Virus record (IMG/VR): IMGVR_UViG_3300019376_000001
Strand: one strand, 5' to 3'
DNA length: 64,000 nucleotides
From: a virus
Lineage: Duplodnaviria; Heunggongvirae; Uroviricota; Caudoviricetes
A model generated the notes under the pieces. That model saw only the letters and a list, made by a program, of their open reading frames with translations, made no database searches and was not told the DNA's origin. Below, one piece after another: positions 24,980 through 30,651 of the stretch; position 1 is the first letter of the stretch, and each line of letters starts with the position of its first letter. The translations under genes were made by a program, and so were the position numbers.

Positions 24980-25771
24980 TTAGAAATGCCAATGATAATT
25001 GTCGTTACGACCTTCGGCGCGAGGGCCAGGCAAGTTAATGCATTTCTTGTGTTCATTTCTTGCATGACGCTGGCTCATATTACGCCAAGTATCGACATCG
25101 GGGATAATGTCCAGAAGCAGATAATCATCAATCTGGTCATAAGTTACGCCCATATTGTCTTCATCAGTCTGACCAGTCATACCATCCGCAGGCGCCTTAT
25201 CAACCAGGTGACGAGGGATTTCCTTCATCGCACGACCCATCATGAGAACTTCACGAACAGTCAGCTCCTGGAACAGATGGAAGTCGCCGGCGAGATCGCC
25301 ATACTTGGTGGTGTAACCAATCCAACCCTCGGACCAGTTACCAGTATTGACTACACGACCTCCATAAATTGCTGCGATAGCATATAGAGTTACCATACGC
25401 ATACGAGCAGGAACATTAGTGCGAACAGCAGGAATTTCGCAATCACCACGACCCACGCAACCATAAAATGCATCAACTGCAGGCTCGATATTGATTTCAT
25501 CATACTTGATACCAAGAGCCTCGCAGACTTCATAGGAATGCGCGATGTCTGCCTGAGTGCCACAAGGCATCAATACGCCGTGAACCCTGTCTGCGCCCAG
25601 TGCTCGGACAAGCAGGGCGGCCGCAATTGTAGAATCCTTACCGCCGGAAATACCGATGATAGCTTTGGTCTCGGGACCGGCATTCTTCACGAAATATTTA
25701 CGAATCCACTCAACAGTGTATTCAATCTGATATTTGGGGTCAAATTCCCACTTTCTCTTATCCTTACCCAT
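24980..25771 (-). CDS. nadE: NAD+ synthetase (ammonia-dependent)
   Basis: 263 aa; PP-loop GISGGKDS and overall NadE layout. Confidence 0.8.
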   Translation of the reverse strand: MGKDKRKWEFDPKYQIEYTVEWIRKYFVKNAGPETKAIIGISGGKDSTIAAALLVRALGADRVHGVLMPCGTQADIAHSYEVCEALGIKYDEINIEPAVDAFYGCVGRGDCEIPAVRTNVPARMRMVTLYAIAAIYGGRVVNTGNWSEGWIGYTTKYGDLAGDFHLFQELTVREVLMMGRAMKEIPRHLVDKAPADGMTGQTDEDNMGVTYDQIDDYLLLDIIPDVDTWRNMSQRHARNEHKKCINLPGPRAEGRNDNYHWHF

Positions 25772-25772
25772 T

Positions 25773-26276
25773 TTACTTTCCTCCGTTATAATGAACGATA
25801 TAGACTATATAGTCTTCATCAAAAACTTCTCGAATCATTGCTTCGATTACATTCCAGTTTGCGCCACCGCGGTCACAGCCAATCAGATAAGGGAAACCGA
25901 TTGTAGACCCCTTAGGAAGAACCTGCTTGAGATTATTCAAACAAATCCAAAACGCATCATAGGAAGTGTAACGCTTGCCATCATAACCATAGTTATTCTG
26001 TGCAAACATATTGCAGACATGTTGATGTTTAATGTCTTTCATAAAGTCCTCATACAGAGGAACGAGCTGAACATCACCAAGCATCATATTAACGCCCAAT
26101 GTTACCATTGCATCATATTTTGCTCGATATGCATCATAAACTTGCGGGTAGGTATCGCGAATCTGCTTCGCGATACCAGACGCCATTTTACCCTGACAAT
26201 TCACCTGATGGCAAATCACATCAAGATTCATGTCTTTCTGTACTTTGAGTAAGTCACCAGGCATATGAACTATCAT
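25773..26276 (-). CDS. Macro domain protein (ADP-ribose binding/processing)
   Basis: 167 aa; DVICHQVNCQGKMASGIAKQI resembles macro domain N-terminal glycine-rich motif; embedded among NAD genes. Confidence 0.55.
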   Translation of the reverse strand: MIVHMPGDLLKVQKDMNLDVICHQVNCQGKMASGIAKQIRDTYPQVYDAYRAKYDAMVTLGVNMMLGDVQLVPLYEDFMKDIKHQHVCNMFAQNNYGYDGKRYTSYDAFWICLNNLKQVLPKGSTIGFPYLIGCDRGGANWNVIEAMIREVFDEDYIVYIVHYNGGK

Positions 26277-27748
26277 TAGTGTACCTCCGGATAAAGATTT
26301 GCACGAATCTGCTGGAAAGTCTGCAGATTGTAGTACTGACCATCCTTGTAGATAGTCTTCATAACAGTGAGATTGTCGTCAACCCACTCAGAGAAACCAT
26401 CAATGCACTCGAAAGTGCCATCGGGATGCTTCTGAACCATGCAGCAACCCTTCTGAGACTTCTTCAGTCCGCCAACGTCGGTCTTAGGGTCCTTGTAGAT
26501 AGGAACTTCCTTACCACCGAAGACACCATAAGTAGCCTTCATAGCCATGCCCCAAGTATCACGAGTCAGAACAGTGAACTTGTTGTCCGGGCTGAACAGA
26601 GCGTGGAAACAGAAAGCGCCAACGCCGAAGACCACATTAGTGGAAGCAAAGCCCAGTTTTTCGAGGGATTCATAAATCTGCTCAACGCGGTTCAGAGTGC
26701 AGCCATCGCCGTAAATCAGACCAATATGAGGGTCGAGGACCTTGTAACCAGCAGCATTGATAGTGCCGCCAAAAACATCCCACAGCTTCTGGATAGTGCC
26801 AACGGAGATAGCAACCATGTCGCCGGAGTCAGGACGAATGAGCAGTTTGCCATTGTGGGCGAGAATTTCGTCCTTGCAAGCAGGAATGATATTGTTTACC
26901 ATATTCCAGTAGTCATAGGTATCAGATACCATAGAGAAACTGGTATTAGGATAGATTTCAGTCAGCATACGCTTTACGAAAGTAATTTCATCACCATCGA
27001 TTGCGTAGTTAGCAGCCATAACAGAGTGCTCAGTGGAAACGGCGCCAATGCCAATCTTGTGCTCTGCACAGTTAGCATAGTAGTACTCGTCCAGATAAGG
27101 CAGAGCAGGAATGGTAGAAGTCTTATTGAAAGACAGGAGCCAAGAAGCAGAGCAACGAGTTGCATCTTCCAGGCAGCTCATGCCACGGAAACCGAAGTCA
27201 GCCATTGCCATATAAGGGTCGGCGCCAGGTGCGGTATGAGAATAGAACTTCTCAGCAACCTTGTGGTACTCCCAACCTACGGTCGCATATGCGCACATAG
27301 GCCACACTTCAGTCTGAAGCAGGCACTCAAGCCACTGAATAACCCAGGCGAAACGAGGATGGGTATTGCGCATCTCAACCAGAGGAATTCCCATATTGAT
27401 TACAGAACCCTCGGGAATTGCGCGGATTTCTACGGGCAGGTAGCCCAGTTCATGCAGTTCGACGATACGGTCTCGCGCCACATTGCCAAGACCAAGGTGG
27501 GCATCGATGTAATGGTCATATTCATACATAACCTGTTCGATGGTTTCATAGAAGAACTCTTCAAAGCCCTTCTGCATATCCATAATGAAAGGCTGAATAC
27601 CATAAACAACCATCTTAGGGAAGTTGTCATTCATTGCCTTTCGAGCAGTCAGATAAGATACCAGATACTCCTGGTTATCGGGATACATCAGAGGGTGGCA
27701 CTGCTTATAAGAGTCACTGTACAGCATAATCATCTTACGAAAATTCAT
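26276..27748 (-). CDS. nadV: nicotinamide phosphoribosyltransferase (NAMPT/NadV)
   Basis: 490 aa; YSDSYK motif near N-terminus and length typical of NadV. Confidence 0.8.
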   Translation of the reverse strand: MNFRKMIMLYSDSYKQCHPLMYPDNQEYLVSYLTARKAMNDNFPKMVVYGIQPFIMDMQKGFEEFFYETIEQVMYEYDHYIDAHLGLGNVARDRIVELHELGYLPVEIRAIPEGSVINMGIPLVEMRNTHPRFAWVIQWLECLLQTEVWPMCAYATVGWEYHKVAEKFYSHTAPGADPYMAMADFGFRGMSCLEDATRCSASWLLSFNKTSTIPALPYLDEYYYANCAEHKIGIGAVSTEHSVMAANYAIDGDEITFVKRMLTEIYPNTSFSMVSDTYDYWNMVNNIIPACKDEILAHNGKLLIRPDSGDMVAISVGTIQKLWDVFGGTINAAGYKVLDPHIGLIYGDGCTLNRVEQIYESLEKLGFASTNVVFGVGAFCFHALFSPDNKFTVLTRDTWGMAMKATYGVFGGKEVPIYKDPKTDVGGLKKSQKGCCMVQKHPDGTFECIDGFSEWVDDNLTVMKTIYKDGQYYNLQTFQQIRANLYPEVH

Positions 27749-27766
27749 ATCTTAAATCTCCTTTTC

Positions 27767-29122: not shown

Positions 29123-29896
29123 TTAAATAATCTCAATCAGTTCATTCTGAGCATTTCCAGGGAAGATGCTATTGGTAGTGAAAATCTTCTCTACCAGACC
29201 AGAATTCACCAAATCTCCATTGAAAATAGTCATCTCACAGTGAGTGACATAGAGATAAACCTTTGCTGCGCCAGCGTCCTTGAGAGCCTTAGCAGTATGG
29301 TAGAAAGTGCCACCACGAGAGCAGATATCGTCAACAATCAGAACATTCTTGCCGACAACTACATCGGGATGCATGAGGTCCAGACCCTCAATCTTACCAT
29401 CTGCCCAGTTACGACGCTTCACGCCAAAGGAATAAGGCTTGTTTACCATACCAGAGTAACGCTTCATTGCGCCCTCGTCAGGGTAGCACATAACCAGATT
29501 TTCGTCTGCAATCTTTTCGATTACAGTTTCGATATGGGCCTGTGCAGATACAACCTGCACATTATCCAGAAGAGCCTCGCACACATTGGAATGGGGGTCT
29601 TCGATGTACACAGCAGCAAATCCCAGGTCATTGATGGTTTCGCAGAAATACTTCAGCGTAAACACATCAGTAGGAGCCTTAACCCGGTCCATACGAGCGT
29701 GAGGGCAGTAAGGCATATACAGGCTCAGAGGAAGGTGCTGATAGTGCTTGCGGATGCAGATGATGGTAAACAACTCGGCATCATTCTCATAATTCCAGAT
29801 TACCAGGCCGTTTTCCAGCTGCTCCGGCAGATGCATGAGCAGGGTGTTGTCGGGATAAGAAAGCTGGTCAATTACAACATTTCCAATTCGAATCAT
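29123..29896 (-). CDS. prs: ribose-phosphate pyrophosphokinase (PRPP synthetase)
   Basis: 257 aa; PRPP-binding motif VLIVDDICSRGGTF; next to NadV as in phage NAD salvage modules. Confidence 0.75.
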   Translation of the reverse strand: MIRIGNVVIDQLSYPDNTLLMHLPEQLENGLVIWNYENDAELFTIICIRKHYQHLPLSLYMPYCPHARMDRVKAPTDVFTLKYFCETINDLGFAAVYIEDPHSNVCEALLDNVQVVSAQAHIETVIEKIADENLVMCYPDEGAMKRYSGMVNKPYSFGVKRRNWADGKIEGLDLMHPDVVVGKNVLIVDDICSRGGTFYHTAKALKDAGAAKVYLYVTHCEMTIFNGDLVNSGLVEKIFTTNSIFPGNAQNELIEII

Positions 29897-29897
29897 A

Positions 29898-30086
29898 TTA
29901 CTTCTCCTTTATCAATCTACTATAAACTTCTTCGATTCGGTCACTATCTTCCCATCCCATCTGCCTATATGCAGCCAATCTCAATATTGCACAATACTTT
30001 TTGAAATTTTGCTTTGCATATATGAAGAGGGATGGGGAGTAAGGAATATCGTTTTGCTTTAGAAAAGCAATTTGTTCATCATTCAT
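29898..30086 (-). CDS. hypothetical small protein
   Basis: 62 aa ORF. Confidence 0.3.
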   Translation of the reverse strand: MNDEQIAFLKQNDIPYSPSLFIYAKQNFKKYCAILRLAAYRQMGWEDSDRIEEVYSRLIKEK

Positions 30087-30651
30087 TGATAACCTTAATC
30101 TGGCAAGACTTCATAGTTTCCAGAGCTGCCAGATGACGCTCGGGAGTAACGCCGGCGCAGCAACTTGCGTCAACAGTTACCTGCACTTCAGGGCAGTAAG
30201 CCTTAATCAGCATTGCATTGGAAACAACGCAGATATCGGTGCAAACGCCCATGAGGATAACCTCGTCGATAGGATTGTCGGGGAGAATGTCGCGGATAAT
30301 CTCAGCCAGGCGGATAGAACCAAAGGTATTCTTGAGAACACGGCTCTTCATAATGTCCTTAGCAGAGTAGAAGCAGAAATTGCTACCATAGTCCACAACG
30401 CTGGAAATCTGCTTATTAATGCTCCAGCCCGGAGTACCCTCGATACAGTGGGGAACAGGCAGGTTCTTACCCTCCTGGGTATCCATATAGTCAGCGTAAT
30501 GGGTGTCCTTGGTGAACATAATCAGATTATCACCGGCGTTCAGTTCTTTCAGACGCTCCACCATCACAGGAACGATTGCCTGAGCCTCAGGACTACCCAG
30601 GGCGCCATCGATGAAATCATTCTGCATATCAACTACAACAATAACTTTCAT
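30079..30651 (-). CDS. pncA: isochorismatase-family hydrolase, likely nicotinamidase
   Basis: 190 aa; VDMQNDF start, catalytic Cys context MGVCTDICV; placement in NAD salvage cluster supports PncA. Confidence 0.65.
   Translation of the reverse strand: MKVIVVVDMQNDFIDGALGSPEAQAIVPVMVERLKELNAGDNLIMFTKDTHYADYMDTQEGKNLPVPHCIEGTPGWSINKQISSVVDYGSNFCFYSAKDIMKSRVLKNTFGSIRLAEIIRDILPDNPIDEVILMGVCTDICVVSNAMLIKAYCPEVQVTVDASCCAGVTPERHLAALETMKSCQIKVINE

Follow-up and report, generated by a model that had tools for sequence, protein, structure and literature searches.

Depletion of nicotinamide adenine dinucleotide (NAD+) is among the commonest anti-phage strategies of bacteria, and NARP1, NARP2 and NARP3 are described metabolic counter-measures of phages. 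For NARP1, Osterman et al. found that phage operons whose products bear the Pfam labels Prs and Nampt make neither phosphoribosyl pyrophosphate (PRPP) nor nicotinamide mononucleotide (NMN) (bioRxiv 10.1101/2024.02.11.579819). The kinase Adps pyrophosphorylates ADP-ribose (ADPR), and the transferase Namat joins the resulting ADPR pyrophosphate (ADPR-PP) with nicotinamide to form NAD+ directly, with no adenylyltransferase; the validated Adps did not make PRPP (bioRxiv 10.1101/2024.02.11.579819). In the variant NARP1-AP, a Poa1p-like Macro phosphatase, Adpp, converts ADPR-1''-phosphate, the product of the aRES defence, to ADPR, and this Adps-Macro-Namat operon type has been validated in Vibrio phage Gary (bioRxiv 10.64898/2026.01.28.702374). 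Here we describe a related gene set at positions 24,980 to 30,651 of a 64-kb stretch of Caudoviricetes DNA (IMG/VR record IMGVR_UViG_3300019376_000001). The whole stretch, which is part of the phage genome and defines the scope of our analysis, is referred to as the window. The set comprises genes for an isochorismatase-family protein, a Prs-like protein, a Nampt-family transferase, a Macro-domain protein and NadE, and both the list of open reading frames (ORFs) and the family searches place all five on the minus strand. On balance, we favour reading it as a deamidated form of NARP1 with a NARP1-AP-type Macro phosphatase, in which the nicotinamidase PncA, Adps and the transferase would lead to nicotinate adenine dinucleotide (NaAD), and NadE would complete the synthesis of NAD+.

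The Prs-like protein (257 aa; 29123..29896, minus strand; phrog_619) contains the motif VLIVDDICSRGGTF, and its score against PF14572 is merely 33 bits. It shares 38.8% identity (149 bits) with the biochemically characterised Adps of SPbetaL1, as against 26% (57 bits) with E. coli Prs. On the curated Prs model TIGR01251 it scores 100.7, under the cutoff of 113, compared with 422.7 for E. coli Prs; the validated Adps proteins of SPbetaL1 and FADO reach 106 and 96.5, and homologues linked to the operons of RYC and ICP1 reach 99 and 98. The essential Lys162 of SPbetaL1 Adps (GHK162QRN) aligns with Lys160 of the window protein (GVKRRN). The protein is most likely an Adps, not a PRPP synthetase, and would convert ADPR and ATP to ADPR-PP. 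Its gene and that of the transferase are 1.4 kb apart on one strand, and the two products most likely represent the Adps/Namat pair of NARP1. A preliminary description of this DNA, made from the letters and a list of ORFs, had taken them for a PRPP synthetase and an NMN-forming NadV, a reading that the bit scores make unlikely. Its remark that the window lacks an NMN adenylyltransferase (NMNAT) holds: a motif scan, phmmer and jackhmmer detected no NMNAT- or NadD-type (HxGH) ORF in the 64-kb window, and the PncB and NMNAT of Sinorhizobium phage Phosso, used as queries, found no homologue among the window ORFs. Since NARP1 chemistry uses no NMNAT, this lack is explained.

The transferase (490 aa; 26276..27748, minus strand; PF04095 and PF18127; YSDSYK at aa 10-15) scores 340 bits against the crystal-structure sequence of SPbetaL1 Namat (9w5x) and about 180 bits against human NAMPT. 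Its catalytic core is kept, with equivalents of D13, Y15, F189, R192, R306, D308, R399 and D400, and its catalytic histidine, His241, aligns with His247 of human NAMPT. The window protein and all of its aligned relatives (82 of 82) retain Phe189, Arg192, Arg306, Asp308, the catalytic histidine and Arg399'. The nicotinamide pocket of Namat is composed of seven residues, among which Asp215 is hydrogen-bonded to the amide of nicotinamide; the D215A mutation lowers NAD+ formation 8.1-fold (PMC12774641). The equivalent Asp219 sets the nicotinamide/nicotinate specificity of NAMPT, and D219S switches the substrate, according to passages in two reviews citing Khan et al. 2006. Alignment to SPbetaL1 Namat demonstrates that five pocket residues (Asp13', Tyr15', Phe189, Arg192 and Arg306) are invariant in the window clade. 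Among the 82 aligned sequences, which include the window protein, the position of Asp215 is occupied by Ser in 81 and by Ala in one, and that of Ala242 by Ser in all. In the window these residues are Ser211 (27116-27118) and Ser238 (27035-27037), and direct alignment to human NAMPT matches them with Asp219 and Ala244. The D219S switch is reportedly towards nicotinic acid. The window transferase is predicted to combine nicotinate and ADPR-PP into NaAD and pyrophosphate, which would be a new activity. We drew no evidence on nicotinate use from its NCBIfam name, 'nicotinate phosphoribosyltransferase' (PRK09198), which presumably serves the NadV family in general.

The pocket change was compared with gene content across the family. 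In a broad sample, the 150 closest 50%-identity cluster representatives of the transferase, the two pocket positions covary strictly, being Asp and Ala in 110 sequences and Ser or Ala and Ser in about 50. A neighbour-joining tree places the variants in one clade of 47 tips with zero Asp/Ala members inside. We fetched 80 IMG/VR loci with the window transferase and 80 more with the variant-clade alignment, which brought in canonical loci. Nearly all of the first 80 have the gene order PncA-Adps-transferase-(Macro)-NadE, on a single strand. Hidden Markov models for the five proteins were run on every locus, and 131 having at least 5 kb on either side of the transferase were evaluable. Among the 112 variant (Ser/Ala plus Ser) loci, Adps is present in 112, PncA in 112, NadE in 111 and Macro in 74; the 19 canonical (Asp plus Ala) loci have Adps in 18, Macro in one, and neither PncA nor NadE in any. 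After clustering at 70% identity, PncA occurs in 13/13 variant and 0/16 canonical clusters (Fisher p=1.5e-8), and NadE in 12/13 and 0/16, respectively (Fisher p=2.5e-7). The grouping is not chance: over 110 independent viral contigs show the same single-strand gene order, PncA-Adps-Namat-(Macro)-NadE. The variant transferases have diverged to about 40% identity across lineages that retain the linkage. Since loss of the aspartate and presence of PncA and NadE go together almost perfectly, the module appears bound to the deamidated route. This makes it unlikely that both the amidated and the deamidated routes are covered, as had been proposed for the locus.

GenBank phages lend independent support. 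A Namat/Nampt homologue occurs in 2,043 of 50,697 records and an Adps/Prs homologue in 1,518, but NadE in only 44 and the window-type nicotinamidase in only eight; these eight are almost all human-gut sequences and include the gut phage Phass-1. The closest GenBank relative, the human-faecal phage scaffold MT835544, has Adps, transferase, Macro, NadE and isochorismatase genes side by side. The operon of gut phage Phass-1 (locus L083, OQ749652) is annotated as nicotinamidase, 'Prs', 'Nampt' and two hypothetical proteins, the second of which matches NadE. In Phass-1, which uses genetic code 15, a 139-aa phrog_1238 ('phosphoheptose isomerase') protein, not a Macro protein, is encoded at 7784-8203 between transferase and NadE, and the operon adjoins a large tRNA array including a suppressor tRNA. 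A DNA search of positions 24000-34000 against GenBank phages, a collection that lacks the phage itself, returned no near-identical match.

The transferase family also contains members outside the two pocket classes and members with insertions. The homologue of the megaphage Prevotella phage Lak-B5 (locus L088, 9932-11521) has Glu at the Asp215 position and belongs to neither class; no Adps, PncA or NadE was found within 10 kb of it. Three homologues (P0143, P0144 and P0213) have intein-like insertions of about 280 residues exactly in the clamp-helix motif (GSY/F-C...SHN-TYQ), and many others, 550-900 aa long, match in two or three separate stretches, a pattern suggestive of frequent inteins or homing-endonuclease insertions in this gene.

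The enzymes proposed for the two ends of the route look functional from their sequences. The isochorismatase-family protein (190 aa; 30079..30651, minus strand; PF00857, E 4.9e-24) has a complete catalytic triad, D8/K107/C141, and a complete metal site, D49/H51/H68, both of which align with the PncA proteins of P. horikoshii and M. tuberculosis; the structures of these two are also its best solved relatives. By these features it is a genuine nicotinamidase, which would hydrolyse nicotinamide to nicotinate and NH3. NadE (263 aa; 24980..25771, minus strand; PF02540, E 9e-51; TIGR00552, 166.7 bits with a cutoff of 63.65) is an NH3-dependent NAD+ synthetase of a single domain. It has the P-loop SGGKDS at aa 42-47, within GISGGKDS, and no glutaminase domain, and is predicted to convert NaAD, ATP and NH3 to NAD+.

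The Macro gene (167 aa; 25773..26276, minus strand) is translationally coupled to the transferase gene, its start codon overlapping the transferase stop by 1 nt. Its product belongs to phrog_335 ('phosphatase', E 4.5e-36), a family shared with the Macro genes that Vibrio phages Bennett and RYC carry in their Adps-Macro-Namat operons. These two have the same operon layout as phage Gary and served as proxies for the validated Gary Adpp; the window protein shares 36% identity with the RYC Macro (E 5e-25) and 31% with the Bennett Macro. A Pfam search of the window protein returned no match at E<0.01. Its AlphaFold model is a macrodomain (pLDDT 89.5), which Foldseek superimposes on the DarG, BT1257, TARG1 and Poa1p macrodomains at a TM score of about 0.73 and a probability of 1.0. 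A profile search against solved structures ranked BT1257, DarG and TARG1 ahead of Poa1p (E 3e-5). Membership of the phage family and gene position suggest an Adpp-like ADPR-1''-phosphate phosphatase that would feed ADPR to Adps. The gene had earlier been seen as an enclosed neighbour of the salvage genes, and its overlap with the transferase and its NARP1-AP-type family speak for a closer tie. FADO has a similar Macro gene that does not adjoin its NARP1 genes and is uninformative on linkage.

Taken together, a pathway can be proposed whose enzyme activities are all inferred. It would be triggered by a host defence NADase that splits NAD+ into nicotinamide and ADPR, or ADPR-1''-phosphate, from which Macro would strip the 1''-phosphate where needed. 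The Adps-like kinase, by homology to that of SPbetaL1, would turn ADPR into ADPR-PP, and the phage nicotinamidase would turn nicotinamide into nicotinate. The Namat-like transferase with its Ser/Ser pocket would then join nicotinate and ADPR-PP to give NaAD directly, and NadE would convert NaAD to NAD+. The scheme has no NMN or nicotinate mononucleotide (NaMN) adenylyltransferase; Adps and the transferase would in effect stand in for PncB and NadD of the Preiss-Handler route. The wider proposition is that phages of gut Clostridia have a widespread four-to-five-gene deamidated NARP1, with Adpp optional, in which a nicotinate-specific derivative of Namat acts as a nicotinate ADP-ribosyltransferase and bypasses nicotinate phosphoribosyltransferase (NAPRT) and NadD; we regard the case for it as evenly balanced. 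Routing through nicotinate might pay off because of nicotinamidases in the host, a thermodynamic pull exerted by NadE or escape from a defence.

Several observations weigh against the deamidated NARP1 reading. The substrate choice in it rests on two residues and gene linkage, and the variant clade is monophyletic, so that the linkage reflects one origin and retention, not repeated independent events. The nicotinate route is also longer and costs more ATP. Profile and fold do not set the Macro protein nearer to Poa1p than to the DarG/TARG1 glycohydrolases. Among solved structures, NadE is most closely related to the Francisella protein 3fiu, which we take to be the Francisella NMN synthetase; its 115 bits compare with 108 for the next relative, an archaeal NadE, and the margin is not discriminating. 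A passage in a review describes a Francisella NadE homologue as an NMN synthetase. The adenine clamp is another such point. The 'selectivity clamp helix' region of the window transferase (26558..26626, minus strand) is remodelled, reading GVGAFCFHALFSPDNKFTVLTRD where the canonical sequence is GSFTYQYNTRD. The helix itself, GAFCFHALFSPDNKFTVLTRD, does not match the canonical motif: position 3, the Phe392 equivalent, is still Phe, and position 7, that of Tyr396, is displaced by a 10-residue insertion in the window sub-clade. In addition, Arg40 of SPbetaL1, which stacks in the clamp loop (Arg/Lys/Tyr), is Met in this sub-clade. Most other variant sub-clades have Arg or Lys there, and most keep the aromatic clamp signature of Namat, as does Phass-1 with GAYTYQYVTRD. 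The degenerate clamp thus makes the preference for ADPR-PP less secure in the window sub-clade than in Phass-1-like variants.

Finally, about 8% of the variant loci have a NadM-, NadD- or NadR-like adenylyltransferase gene within 10 kb. These genes are located at 14234-14809 in L004 and L005, 9368-9955 in L006, 624-1184 in L175, 7255-8034 in L103, 19018-19674 in L119 and 9432-10562 in L181, and their bearers include close relatives, namely L004 and L005, whose transferase is 82% identical to that of the window, and L175 (83%). Because adenylyltransferase genes lie beside some variant loci, a branch from PRPP to NaMN may exist, and both ADPR-PP and PRPP may be used as donors. A Preiss-Handler-like route of this kind, which we hold to be unlikely for the module as a whole, would have the transferase make NaMN from nicotinate and PRPP, the latter possibly supplied by the Prs-like protein, with no part for ADPR as ribosyl donor; NadD of the host or a phage NMNAT encoded outside the window would adenylate NaMN, and NadE would finish. 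NadD is essential and near-universal in bacteria, and some of the phage genome lies outside the window. Apart from the degenerate clamp and the neighbouring adenylyltransferases (among them those of L004, L005, L006 and L175), it is in favour of this route that Namat can use PRPP in vitro (bioRxiv 10.1101/2024.02.11.579819; PMC12774641). However, a protein of the Adps clade is present in 112/112 variant loci and resembles true Prs no more than the validated Adps does, whereas the PRPP-based NARP2 phages do without Prs. The clamp signature and Arg40 are retained in most variant sub-clades, the ADPR-handling Macro is enriched (74/112 variant against 1/19 canonical loci), and no adenylyltransferase is found in the window or within 10 kb in about 92% of the variant loci.

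Two other explanations were weighed. The locus could be an ordinary NARP1-AP acting on nicotinamide, with PncA and NadE as independent auxiliaries that boost the Preiss-Handler flux of the host. Adps, a Namat-like transferase and Macro are indeed present in a known combination, and phages such as cyanophages and Phosso carry NadE or whole classical salvage sets alone. We nevertheless consider this quite improbable: the amide-binding aspartate, whose replacement by Ala cuts Namat activity 8-fold, is gone, a phage nicotinamidase would vie with a nicotinamide-using Namat for its substrate, and independent accessories would not be confined, as PncA and NadE are, to the Ser/Ala-type transferase and never accompany the Asp type. 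The scheme of the preliminary description, in which Prs makes PRPP, NadV makes NMN, the host finishes, and PncA and NadE form a parallel deamidated route, agrees with the Pfam, PHROG and NCBIfam names, which read Prs and NadV/NAPRT. The same names proved misleading for the homologous phage operon (bioRxiv 10.1101/2024.02.11.579819), the Prs-like protein falls short of the curated cutoff for Prs and sides with Adps, and the transferase lacks the nicotinamide-specific aspartate, so that scheme is very hard to credit. What survives of it is that this is a module for rebuilding NAD+, probably directed against NAD+-depleting defences, with NadE and the nicotinamidase as unusual additions; the pathway it proposed is probably wrong. 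The deamidated NARP1 reading accommodates the altered pocket, the linked PncA and NadE and the Adps-type kinase, and is the one we retain.

The module is laid out in two transcription units, with terminators and promoters located by consensus scan only. A terminator-like hairpin (30738-30713) and a promoter-like site, TTGATT-17-TATAAT (30714-30686), lie just upstream of PncA on the minus strand and start unit 1, which contains PncA, a 62-aa ORF, Adps and a predicted lipoprotein. A second hairpin and promoter-like site (28524..28581, minus strand) divides it from unit 2, composed of another 62-aa ORF, a 178-aa ORF, the transferase, Macro and NadE, and a third (24916..24978, minus strand) closes unit 2. 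The three cassettes are near-identical, each pairing a GC-rich hairpin and its T-run with an immediately following TTGATT-17-TATAAT that has an extended -10 TG, and look like reused terminator/promoter units that punctuate gene modules. Within both units, conserved genes either overlap or adjoin one another. In unit 1, the 62-aa ORF (29898..30086, minus strand), which has no family match, overlaps the PncA stop and abuts the Adps start; among the related loci it has a homologue only in L004 and L005. The genes had been called contiguous, and they are indeed on the minus strand throughout, but three unrelated ORFs and a terminator-promoter pair split the set. These ORFs encode the predicted lipoprotein (171 aa; 28590..29105, minus strand), recognised by a signal/lipobox-like N-terminus and weak lipoprotein matches; a 62-aa protein without family match (28284-28472, minus strand); and a Cys/Trp-rich 178-aa protein, also without family match (27767-28303, minus strand). 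Among the related loci, the 178-aa ORF was seen only in L003 (88% identity) and the lipoprotein ORF in none. The intervening ORFs (27767-28472 and 28590-29105) are missing from nearly all related loci, which rules them out as module members; they are variable cargo, and the 178-aa protein and the lipoprotein may be accessory or anti-defence cargo.

The other genes listed in the preliminary description are also present: the four enzyme genes with their motifs, Macro, the vault gene and an NAD-dependent DNA ligase (7620-9566) were all found in the ORF list and by family searches. The MVP-like 'vault' gene (830 aa; 30749-33241; MVP_shoulder and Vault_3) is directly upstream of the module, and MVP homologues are likewise upstream of PncA in L003-L005 and L008. 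A flotillin/SPFH protein of 510 aa is encoded at 20877-22409, 8 kb away. RNA-repair-like genes flank the module, namely a PNK-like AAA_33 kinase (23304-23810), calcineurin-like phosphoesterases (22724-23365 and 24156-24866), a Thg1 tRNA-His guanylyltransferase (34083-35012) and a PIN-PhoH protein (18698-19936). Elsewhere, a tRNA-His guanylyltransferase is encoded about 2 kb from the NARP1 genes of Bacillus phage FADO, and an RNA ligase gene adjoins Adps in MT835544.

The distribution of the module points to the human gut. Matches in genome collections are in metagenome-assembled genomes (MAGs) of gut Clostridia (Lachnospiraceae, Agathobacter, Roseburia, Acutalibacteraceae and Faecalimonas), and the module is also found in Ruminococcus sp. 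AM36-2AA and Lachnospiraceae bacterium A4, which are not labelled as MAGs, on scaffolds of 499 and 792 kb. The gut Clostridia matches show the Ser/Ser signature, two of them as ambiguous reads, and most have all four genes. Of the 150 closest representatives of 50%-identity clusters, about a third belong to the variant clade, which dominates the matches in human-gut viromes and gut Clostridia assemblies; in the human gut, the variant may predominate over other forms of the pathway. About 8,000 scored relatives of the transferase are in the protein database, and the contrast between Asp/Ala and Ser-or-Ala/Ser offers a simple sequence rule for sorting thousands of metagenomic homologues. The labels 'NadV' and 'Prs' can mask a substrate switch that is marked by two residues. 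Some relatives unite Adps, the transferase and an NMNAT-like gene, which is a second exception. If the proposed pathway is true, the deamidated branch adds an enzyme activity to NAD biochemistry, the formation of NaAD straight from ADPR-PP.

In a full-text literature search of incomplete coverage, no paper tied NARP1, Namat or ADPR-PP to NadE, nicotinamidase, nicotinic acid or NaAD. The two Osterman preprints mention neither NadE nor nicotinamidase, and the NARP1 preprint also mentions no nicotinic acid or deamidation. NARP3 was considered as a prior description and set aside as unrelated, being composed of PnuC and NadR (PMC13464706). The NARP1/NARP1-AP framework is thus known; the proposed change of substrate, PncA and NadE as obligatory partners and the implied formation of NaAD appear to be new.

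In comparison with known systems, the window module shares with NARP1 (bioRxiv 10.1101/2024.02.11.579819; PMC12774641) an Adps-group kinase linked to a Namat-like transferase with conserved catalytic residues, independence from an adenylyltransferase, and phage origin. Different from NARP1, it has Ser in place of both Asp215 and Ala242, a 10-residue insertion in the clamp helix, Met for the clamp-loop Arg, and obligatorily linked nicotinamidase and NadE, and its predicted product is NaAD, not NAD+. With NARP1-AP (Adps-Adpp-Namat; bioRxiv 10.64898/2026.01.28.702374) it has in common a phrog_335 Macro gene adjoining the transferase, as in RYC and Bennett. The gene order differs, being Adps-Macro-Namat in NARP1-AP and transferase-Macro-NadE in the window, where the phosphatase role is predicted. 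NARP2 (Nampt and Nmnat, phage KVP40) and NARP3 (PnuC and NadR; PMC13464706) also restore NAD+ against NAD+-depleting defences. The window has no Nmnat, PnuC or NadR, and its transferase is linked to Adps and is Namat-like, not Nampt-like. The Preiss-Handler pathway (PncA, PncB, NadD and NadE) is represented among the related phages by the jumbo phage Phosso (locus L084, PV764938), which encodes an isochorismatase-type hydrolase, NMNAT, a MutT/Nudix protein, a PncB-type NAPRT, NadE and a nucleoside deoxyribosyltransferase at 5876-12415, a set that looks like a complete classical salvage pathway. The window module resembles the Preiss-Handler pathway in being deamidated, with a nicotinamidase as first and an NH3-dependent NAD+ synthetase as last enzyme. 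The PncB-type NAPRT and NadD that stand between them in that pathway are absent from the window, where they are apparently replaced by Adps and a Namat-derived transferase acting on ADPR, not on PRPP.

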